The notes beneath the pieces were generated by a model. It was not told the origin of the DNA. It was given only the letters and a program-made list of their open reading frames with translations, and did not search any database. This document shows positions 40,028 through 40,825 of a DNA stretch of 64,000 bases, in pieces. Origin of the DNA: Escherichia coli (GTDB lineage Bacteria > Pseudomonadota > Gammaproteobacteria > Enterobacterales > Enterobacteriaceae); NCBI RefSeq assembly GCF_051903065.1, contig NZ_CP178438.1; one strand, given 5' to 3'. The position numbers were made by a program, and so were the translations under genes. The first letter of the stretch is position 1. Every line of letters begins with the position of its first letter.

Positions 40028-40825
40028 TTATCCCGGTTGTCACCCGGATCATAGTCACTTGATGTGACTATGATCCGATTAATACTCTCTCCGCTACGCA
40101 GTGTTGTAGATCAATTGCGCACTATCATTGAAATAATTACCTGCTAGTGATTATTTCAACCTACTGAATTTCATCTAATTTTTTTCACTCCATGGCAAAT
40201 TAGCCATTTCAAACATTATCATGGCTGATATTTTCCGTAGTCAGGTTTAATGTTTTAAAAGTGCTGTGGGAAAGTGAACAAAGAGTTCCGTAAGCGTTGA
40301 TGCTATGGGCGGTTAAATAAGTAATCCGGGTTCATTTTTTTGCAACTGGCGTTGATTACATTGCATAAATATCCGTGTCTCCAGACGCTATATAAAAACC
40401 TGAAGACATGAATGCGTTATTTACTCAGGTAATTTCAATGCGTTAAAAGAAAGCTGGCAATCCAATTGCCAGCTTAAGTCGAAACAAGGAGACTCGATAT
40501 TTAAATCGGATTACATTTTAACTTTAGTAATATTCTTCAGAGATCACAAACTGGTTATTGATAACTTATTCTTGGGCAGTAATCCGCAAACGTTAACTTT
40601 TTGTTTACTATTTACAAGATGATAACAACCAGGAATCTTACTTAGGATCAATATATGGAGTGCGTGATGGATAAATCTGAAGTATTGATTAGTGTTAATA
40701 GACGTATTAGTTCACGAAGGGCAAAGTTCTTATAGGCGTTTACTATATTGAACAACGATTCGGACAAGGATGTAAATAATGAAAAGGATGACATGTTCGA
40801 AACGATAACGGCTAAGGAGCAAGTT

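Follow-up and report, generated by a model that had tools for sequence, protein, structure and literature searches.

The acid fitness island of E. coli occupies approximately 38.4-46 kb of the window, the whole 64-kb stretch of DNA analysed here. It contains hdeB and hdeA on the minus strand followed by hdeD, gadE, mdtE and mdtF on the plus strand, and the gene order hdeB-hdeA-hdeD-[spacer]-gadE-mdtE-mdtF is given by ORFs, Pfam and RefSeq annotation. gadE is the master switch of E. coli acid resistance, and the region upstream of it is among the most heavily regulated promoters of this organism. hdeD ends at 40027 and the gadE ATG lies at 40826, leaving a spacer of 798 bp with exactly the limits given in a preliminary description of the locus. 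Judged by its sequence, this interval is the well-studied gadE control region with the antisense sRNA gene arrS, already known in detail from K-12, and the DNA here is a near-identical allele of the K-12 region. The features of the region are:

39455-40027, plus strand: hdeD, the 5' flank of the spacer
40028-40825, plus strand: hdeD-gadE intergenic region, the gadE "sensory integration region" (PgadE), 798 bp, 36.1% GC
40045-40077, plus strand: hdeD 3' hairpin, with a 13-14 bp stem and a 5-nt loop and no U-tract after it
40196-40275, plus strand: conserved P3 promoter block with the published T3 start at 40260 (clade identity; PMC3708157)
40260-40825, plus strand: 5' UTR of the longest gadE transcript (T3, 566 nt; start from the literature), the strand targeted by ArrS
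40445-40514, minus strand: arrS, a 70-nt cis-antisense and Hfq-dependent trans-acting sRNA, assigned by identity to K-12 b4704
40445-40475, minus strand: ArrS intrinsic terminator, an 11-bp stem (40475-40451) with a 3-nt loop, then UUUCUUUU
40502-40509, plus strand: T2 starts (-324/-317), mapped from PMC3708157
40521-40527, minus strand: candidate ArrS -10 element CTAAAGT, its C at -13, located 7 nt before the ArrS 5' end (40514)
40648-40839, minus strand: 63-aa ORF, rejected as a gene
40655-40735, plus strand: 26-aa ORF, with AGGA 7 nt upstream of its ATG
40702-40825, plus strand: T1 leader (from -124), from the GadE auto-activated promoter P1
40826-41353, plus strand: gadE coding sequence, 175 aa, LuxR/GerE family

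The spacer is AT-rich, as had been described, with a GC content of 36.1% compared to 48.8% for the whole window; 7.4% of 798-bp windows are equally AT-rich. The AT content of gadE and of the hdeAB-hdeD promoter region equals or exceeds that of the spacer, so AT-richness extends past it. The spacer also holds the record for ORF-free DNA in the 64-kb window. With ORF cut-offs of 64, 80 or 100 aa, it is open for 720 bp up to a spurious TTG extension of gadE, and the runner-up measures 626 bp. This agrees with the earlier statement that the spacer contains no convincing ORF, the 63-aa frame being rejected below. The N-terminal extension of gadE from the TTG at 40748, proposed by the ORF lister, was rejected on the basis of stop codons in divergent clades and the RefSeq start at 40826.

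An alignment with the K-12 gadE upstream region had been suggested as a check. The spacer aligns to K-12 MG1655 without gaps or indels and is identical at 792 of 798 positions (99.2%). The six SNPs lie at 40031, 40191, 40607, 40619, 40722 and 40795, none of them in arrS or at a published transcription start; a natural SNP hot spot (40603-40621) accounts for two of them and the T1 leader for another two. The K-12 PgadE (Ma et al. 2004; Sayed & Foster 2009; Deng et al. 2013, PMC3708157) has the same flanking genes and the same 798-bp length, and every published start position lies in sequence identical between K-12 and this strain. Using megablast, the spacer was matched in 5413 of 5426 complete E. 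coli genomes and was chromosomal in every case. PGAP annotates no feature within the spacer in seven other E. coli genomes, and K-12 has arrS only. The hits in NZ_AP040186.1 and NZ_CP103559.1 represent a few E. coli genomes in which the spacer carries an IS1 insertion or is truncated beside a Tn3-family transposase, changes that could alter gadE regulation in the strains concerned.

The published literature describes this spacer as the "unusually long 798 bp gadE promoter" and as a "sensory integration region", and counts about eight intergenic regions of such size in E. coli (PMC3708157). Together with the match to K-12, this bears out the preliminary description of a multi-promoter sensory region. 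Published gadE starts are located at -21, -124 (T1), -324/-317 (T2) and -566 (T3) (PMC3708157), and through the gap-free K-12 alignment they map to 40805, 40702, 40502/40509 and 40260, respectively. More than ten regulators act on the region: EvgA, YdeO, GadE, GadX, GadW, RpoS, H-NS, PhoP, CRP, TorR, MnmE and ArcA (PMC3708157). Most anaerobic activity requires P3, which a truncation series showed to be needed for about two-thirds of activity, while GadE auto-activates P1 through a GAD box (PMC3708157). H-NS silences the region and ArcA antagonises this silencing (PMC3708157). Additionally, H-NS/StpA-dependent protein occupancy over the locus yields to local regulators upon induction (PMC11230228). 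We also searched the spacer with generic models. A sigma-70 scan returned 4 promoter-like sites compared to 3.2 +/- 1.7 in shuffled sequences, with none at the published starts, and missed P1, P2, P3 and the arrS promoter, in keeping with the earlier remark that promoters could not be placed by eye. The -10 element of P3 is likely TTTAAT at 40246-40251, a placement made from the sequence. No entries were found at the expected start coordinates in a Cappable-seq supplement whose tables are possibly incomplete and derive from exponential-phase cells.

Describing the entire interval as a leader of about 800 bp was correct in length and AT-richness and too broad as a label. The first ~55 nt constitute the 3' end of hdeD with its conserved hairpin, and 40082-40259 is upstream promoter DNA. 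A KD of 138 nM has been reported for CsrA on the gadE leader (PMC11210196). Within the T1 leader, GGA motifs occur at 40762, 40768, 40786 and 40816, the one at 40816 lying within the Shine-Dalgarno sequence (SD). The minimum free energy fold of this leader sequesters the SD with a z of only -1.7, and we leave it uninterpreted. A GAD-box half-site, TTAGGAT, is found at 40643-40649, 53-59 bp upstream of T1. A scan with the 20-nt GAD-box consensus gave a best match of 13/20 in the spacer, which is the chance level and does not allow a GadE site to be placed. Elsewhere in the window, the same scan identified an exact 20-nt GAD box upstream of gadA at 50120-50139 (minus strand) and a 15/20 match (TTAGGAAATTTTTATTAAAT) at 39359-39378 (plus strand) in the hdeA-hdeD divergent promoter region.

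The preliminary description had raised the possibility of an "arrS-like" antisense RNA on the minus strand. We find that this is arrS itself. K-12 arrS (b4704; 3657985-3658054, minus strand) is identical to 40445-40514 at 70 of 70 positions and lies inside the T3 leader on the strand opposite to gadE; this call is based on identity to an experimentally characterised K-12 gene rather than on expression in the present strain. The 60 bp upstream of arrS are also 100% identical, and in comparison to the K-12 gene (Aiso et al. 2011, 2014), the position, strand and terminator are the same, with no sequence difference. The intrinsic terminator, whose stem contains G+C, was found by both a terminator scan and folding, and the fold of the 70-nt RNA has an energy of -20.2 kcal/mol (z = -3.84). 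Base 7 of ArrS is C, in agreement with a published C7G pairing mutant (PMC6755755). Upstream of the 5' end, CTAAAGT is plausible as a sigma-S-type -10 element by its position. A permissive E-value scan with Rfam found nothing in the spacer; no family there matches ArrS, hence there is no independent model-based call of arrS.

Published K-12 Term-seq data place a minus-strand 3' end at 3657984/5, equivalent to 40444/5, on the last U of ArrS. This end is represented by 171,112 reads in LB at OD 2.0 and 982,952 reads in M63, and has no entry for exponential LB (OD 0.4), a pattern that fits stationary-phase or acid control. ArrS is antisense to gadE T3, depends on sigma-S and GadE, and has cfa as a target (PMC6755755); the dependence of arrS on GadE was also reported separately (PMC11230228). 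The ArrS-gadE duplex is an RNase III substrate, and an RNase III cleavage site lies in ArrS (PMC6212723; PMC8708148). ArrS binds Hfq and works both in cis and in trans (PMC5145812), activating cfa by masking an RNase E site (PMC5145812; PMC6755755). In one study, a chromosomal deletion of arrS left acid survival unaffected (PMC6755755), indicating that the physiological weight of ArrS is modest or conditional. The 5' ends of T2 and ArrS are arranged head-to-head and overlap by 6-13 nt (40502/40509 and 40514). It follows that T3 alone is complementary to ArrS over its full length.

The same island encodes a comparable RNA, GadY, in the gadX-gadW spacer. Like ArrS, GadY binds Hfq, is antisense to the mRNA of an acid-resistance regulator and acts in cis and in trans (PMC5145812). 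The two RNAs differ in locus and sequence, and also in the site of pairing, which is a 5' UTR for ArrS and a 3' UTR/intercistronic region for GadY. As for ArrS, pairing by GadY results in processing that depends on RNase III.

To follow the spacer through Escherichia, we retrieved one genome per species using the ArrS terminator as an exact seed. The search returned three divergent lineages (CP089930 "E69", E. whittamii and Escherichia sp. E1V33) and the closer Escherichia sp. MOD1-EC7003. Together with a contaminated "Flavobacterium" contig, six E. coli strains and K-12, these make up a 13-sequence alignment, in which conservation of 40451-40475 is given by construction and which covers relatives that carry this seed. 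The "Flavobacterium paronense" CECT 8460 contig (NZ_JAUFQN010000010.1, 8.6 kb) shares 98.8% identity with the hdeD-gadE region of E. coli and has single-base indels scattered along it; almost certainly, it is E. coli DNA that contaminated a long-read assembly. Identities in the three divergent lineages are, by block:

40028-40195: hdeD-proximal part, 45-52%
40196-40275: P3 core, 94-96%
40276-40339: early T3 leader, 41-67%
40340-40444: late T3 leader, largely deleted
40445-40514: arrS, 96-99% (92-97% outside the seed)
40575-40639: between P2 and P1, 63-77%
40640-40825: P1 plus leader, 91-95%

E69, E. whittamii and E1V33 lack approximately 100 bp of T3 leader sequence upstream of arrS, and the deletion boundaries differ among them. 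Within E. coli, a dense SNP cluster is found at 40603-40621, between P2 and P1. P3, arrS and P1 with its leader are kept and the intervening DNA has decayed or been lost, indicating that constraint falls on the published functional elements. This block pattern bears directly on the reading that the spacer is nothing more than horizontally acquired DNA, coated by H-NS and in decay, that lacks any specific function past the proximal promoter. Such a reading would account for the low GC content, which is common to the neighbouring island genes, and for 40028-40195, 40276-40444 and 40575-40639 being poorly conserved or deleted in the sister clades. However, an identity of 92-99% is kept in three separate blocks distant from the gadE start, compared to 41-67% in their flanks, and ArrS is abundant in K-12 as determined by Term-seq. 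For K-12 the idea is refuted by the published truncations, in which loss of P3 costs about two-thirds of activity (PMC3708157), and for the spacer analysed here we give it almost no credence.

Two short frames could in principle make part of the spacer coding. The minus-strand ORF of 63 aa covers the gadE SD (AAGGAG, 40813-40818) and the first 14 nt of gadE, as had been noted. Every E. coli sensu stricto sequence examined, and also Escherichia sp. MOD1-EC7003, keeps this frame open with hardly any variation. This invariance within E. coli arises because the frame overlaps the P1 promoter, the T1 leader and the gadE ribosome binding site. The three divergent clades (E69, E. whittamii and E1V33) all have one extra nucleotide after 40757, which shifts the frame to a stop at codon 37 and breaks it in DNA that is still 91-95% identical. 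No SD precedes the ORF within 15 nt, and the generic scan gave no promoter-like site for the minus strand. The ORF is unannotated in eight of eight RefSeq genomes, its exact sequence is missing from 15 billion predicted proteins and it has no Pfam match above threshold. A genuine small-protein gene across the start of gadE is therefore exceedingly improbable. The plus-strand ORF of 26 aa was considered as a translated leader peptide on T2 and T3 that tunes gadE in the way EvgL does for evgA. It is preceded by AGGA at a distance of 7 nt, an open frame of the same length is present in 13 of 13 Escherichia alignment sequences, and EvgL, itself encoded by a short leader ORF of an acid-resistance regulator, provides a precedent in the same regulatory cascade (PMC11210196). 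However, the variants of the 26-aa frame comprise 2 synonymous and 14 non-synonymous changes, no better than random (21% synonymous expected), and when an equal number of changes is placed randomly, 28% of simulations leave the frame open. Its invariant C-terminal half coincides with the P1 core promoter, its AGGA belongs to the TTAGGAT GAD-box-like half-site, and the T1 start at 40702 falls inside it. The frame has no entry in the Ribo-seq supplement of Stringer et al. or in Enterobacteriaceae smORF tables, which are weak negatives because gadE T2 and T3 are poorly expressed in exponential LB. Experiments have shown EvgL to be translated and to be coupled to evgA, while the 26-aa ORF ends 90 nt before gadE and is without a coding signature, and we regard translation of the latter as very unlikely. 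Additional spacer ORFs of 27, 23 and 35 aa were rejected due to stops or frameshifts in other strains.

With high confidence, we interpret the interval as a composite regulatory spacer of the gadE-mdtEF operon that works as described for K-12. The identity of the region, its anatomy, the terminator, the conserved blocks and the lack of coding signal come from the present analysis. We infer that this strain behaves like K-12, with the promoters, the regulators and the expression and action of ArrS transferred from K-12 experiments. H-NS and StpA would silence the AT-rich DNA of the spacer, and three main activator-dependent promoters, P3 (start at 40260), P2 (40502/40509) and P1 (40702), would integrate EvgA/YdeO, GadX/GadW, RpoS, ArcA and GadE auto-activation. 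The predicted gadE mRNA leaders measure 566, ~320 and 124 nt. arrS would be transcribed from 40514 to 40445 in stationary phase or acid under sigma-S and GadE and would stop at its own intrinsic terminator. The resulting RNA, perfectly complementary to the T3 leader, would form a duplex that RNase III cuts; this is reported to increase GadE production and would thus close a positive feedback loop. With Hfq, ArrS would also act in trans, as in cfa activation, and CsrA would bind the GGA motifs of the short T1 leader. Recognising the interval correctly averts mis-annotation of the 63-aa ORF, shows an intact regulatory region in this strain and gives the position of arrS, a gene missing from the PGAP annotation of the non-K-12 genomes inspected. 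Current understanding of the region is unchanged by this analysis; the modest additions are a map of sub-block conservation in Escherichia and a structurally conserved hairpin at the 3' end of hdeD, both of which go beyond the preliminary description.

The hdeD hairpin begins eighteen nt after the hdeD stop codon and folds at about -25 kcal/mol (z = -5.5). Across lineages, 96.7% of alignment cells are paired, and the divergent Escherichia clades show two compensatory pairs (GC to CG and AU to CG). Its G-U variants form pairs only on the plus-strand RNA. A plus-strand 3' end in K-12 Term-seq (3657621, equivalent to 40081) lies 4 nt after the stem. The hairpin is probably a structure that defines or protects the 3' end of hdeD mRNA rather than a canonical intrinsic terminator.

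K-12 Term-seq contains a further plus-strand 3' end, a weak one equivalent to 40479 (1432 reads, M63 only), which the authors of that study leave undiscussed. It lies in the gadE T3 leader, 4 nt past the ArrS terminator hairpin read in the sense direction. It may mark the point at which an exonuclease halts at the hairpin once RNase III or RNase E has cut, or may reflect weak bidirectional termination. That the arrS terminator hairpin is also active on the plus strand, within the T3 leader, is a speculative proposal that we think unlikely. If true, T3 transcription or processing would yield a 5'-UTR fragment of ~220 nt (40260-40479) carrying roughly half of the ArrS-complementary sequence. Such a fragment could attenuate T3 read-through into gadE or act on ArrS as a decoy. 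Given also that the P2 and arrS starts overlap head-to-head, the middle of the spacer would then be a bidirectional switch, not a simple antisense pair.

Lastly, small elements were observed on either side of the region. Downstream of hdeB, a sub-threshold "mir-761" match at 38372-38414 on both strands corresponds to a palindromic hairpin, and K-12 Term-seq has a strong minus-strand 3' end (3655910) at this hairpin. The miRNA assignment was rejected, the element being a bacterial terminator with a strong minus-strand 3' end. Opposite the gadE-mdtE spacer, PGAP calls a 92-aa "hypothetical protein" at 41354-41632 (minus strand) in non-K-12 genomes and not in K-12; this call across GadF is probably spurious. 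The gadE-mdtE spacer itself has an Rfam match to ES205 (41471-41542, plus strand; 105 bits), which is the K-12 sRNA GadF (b4718), and a K-12 Term-seq 3' end for GadF falls at the equivalent of 41541.
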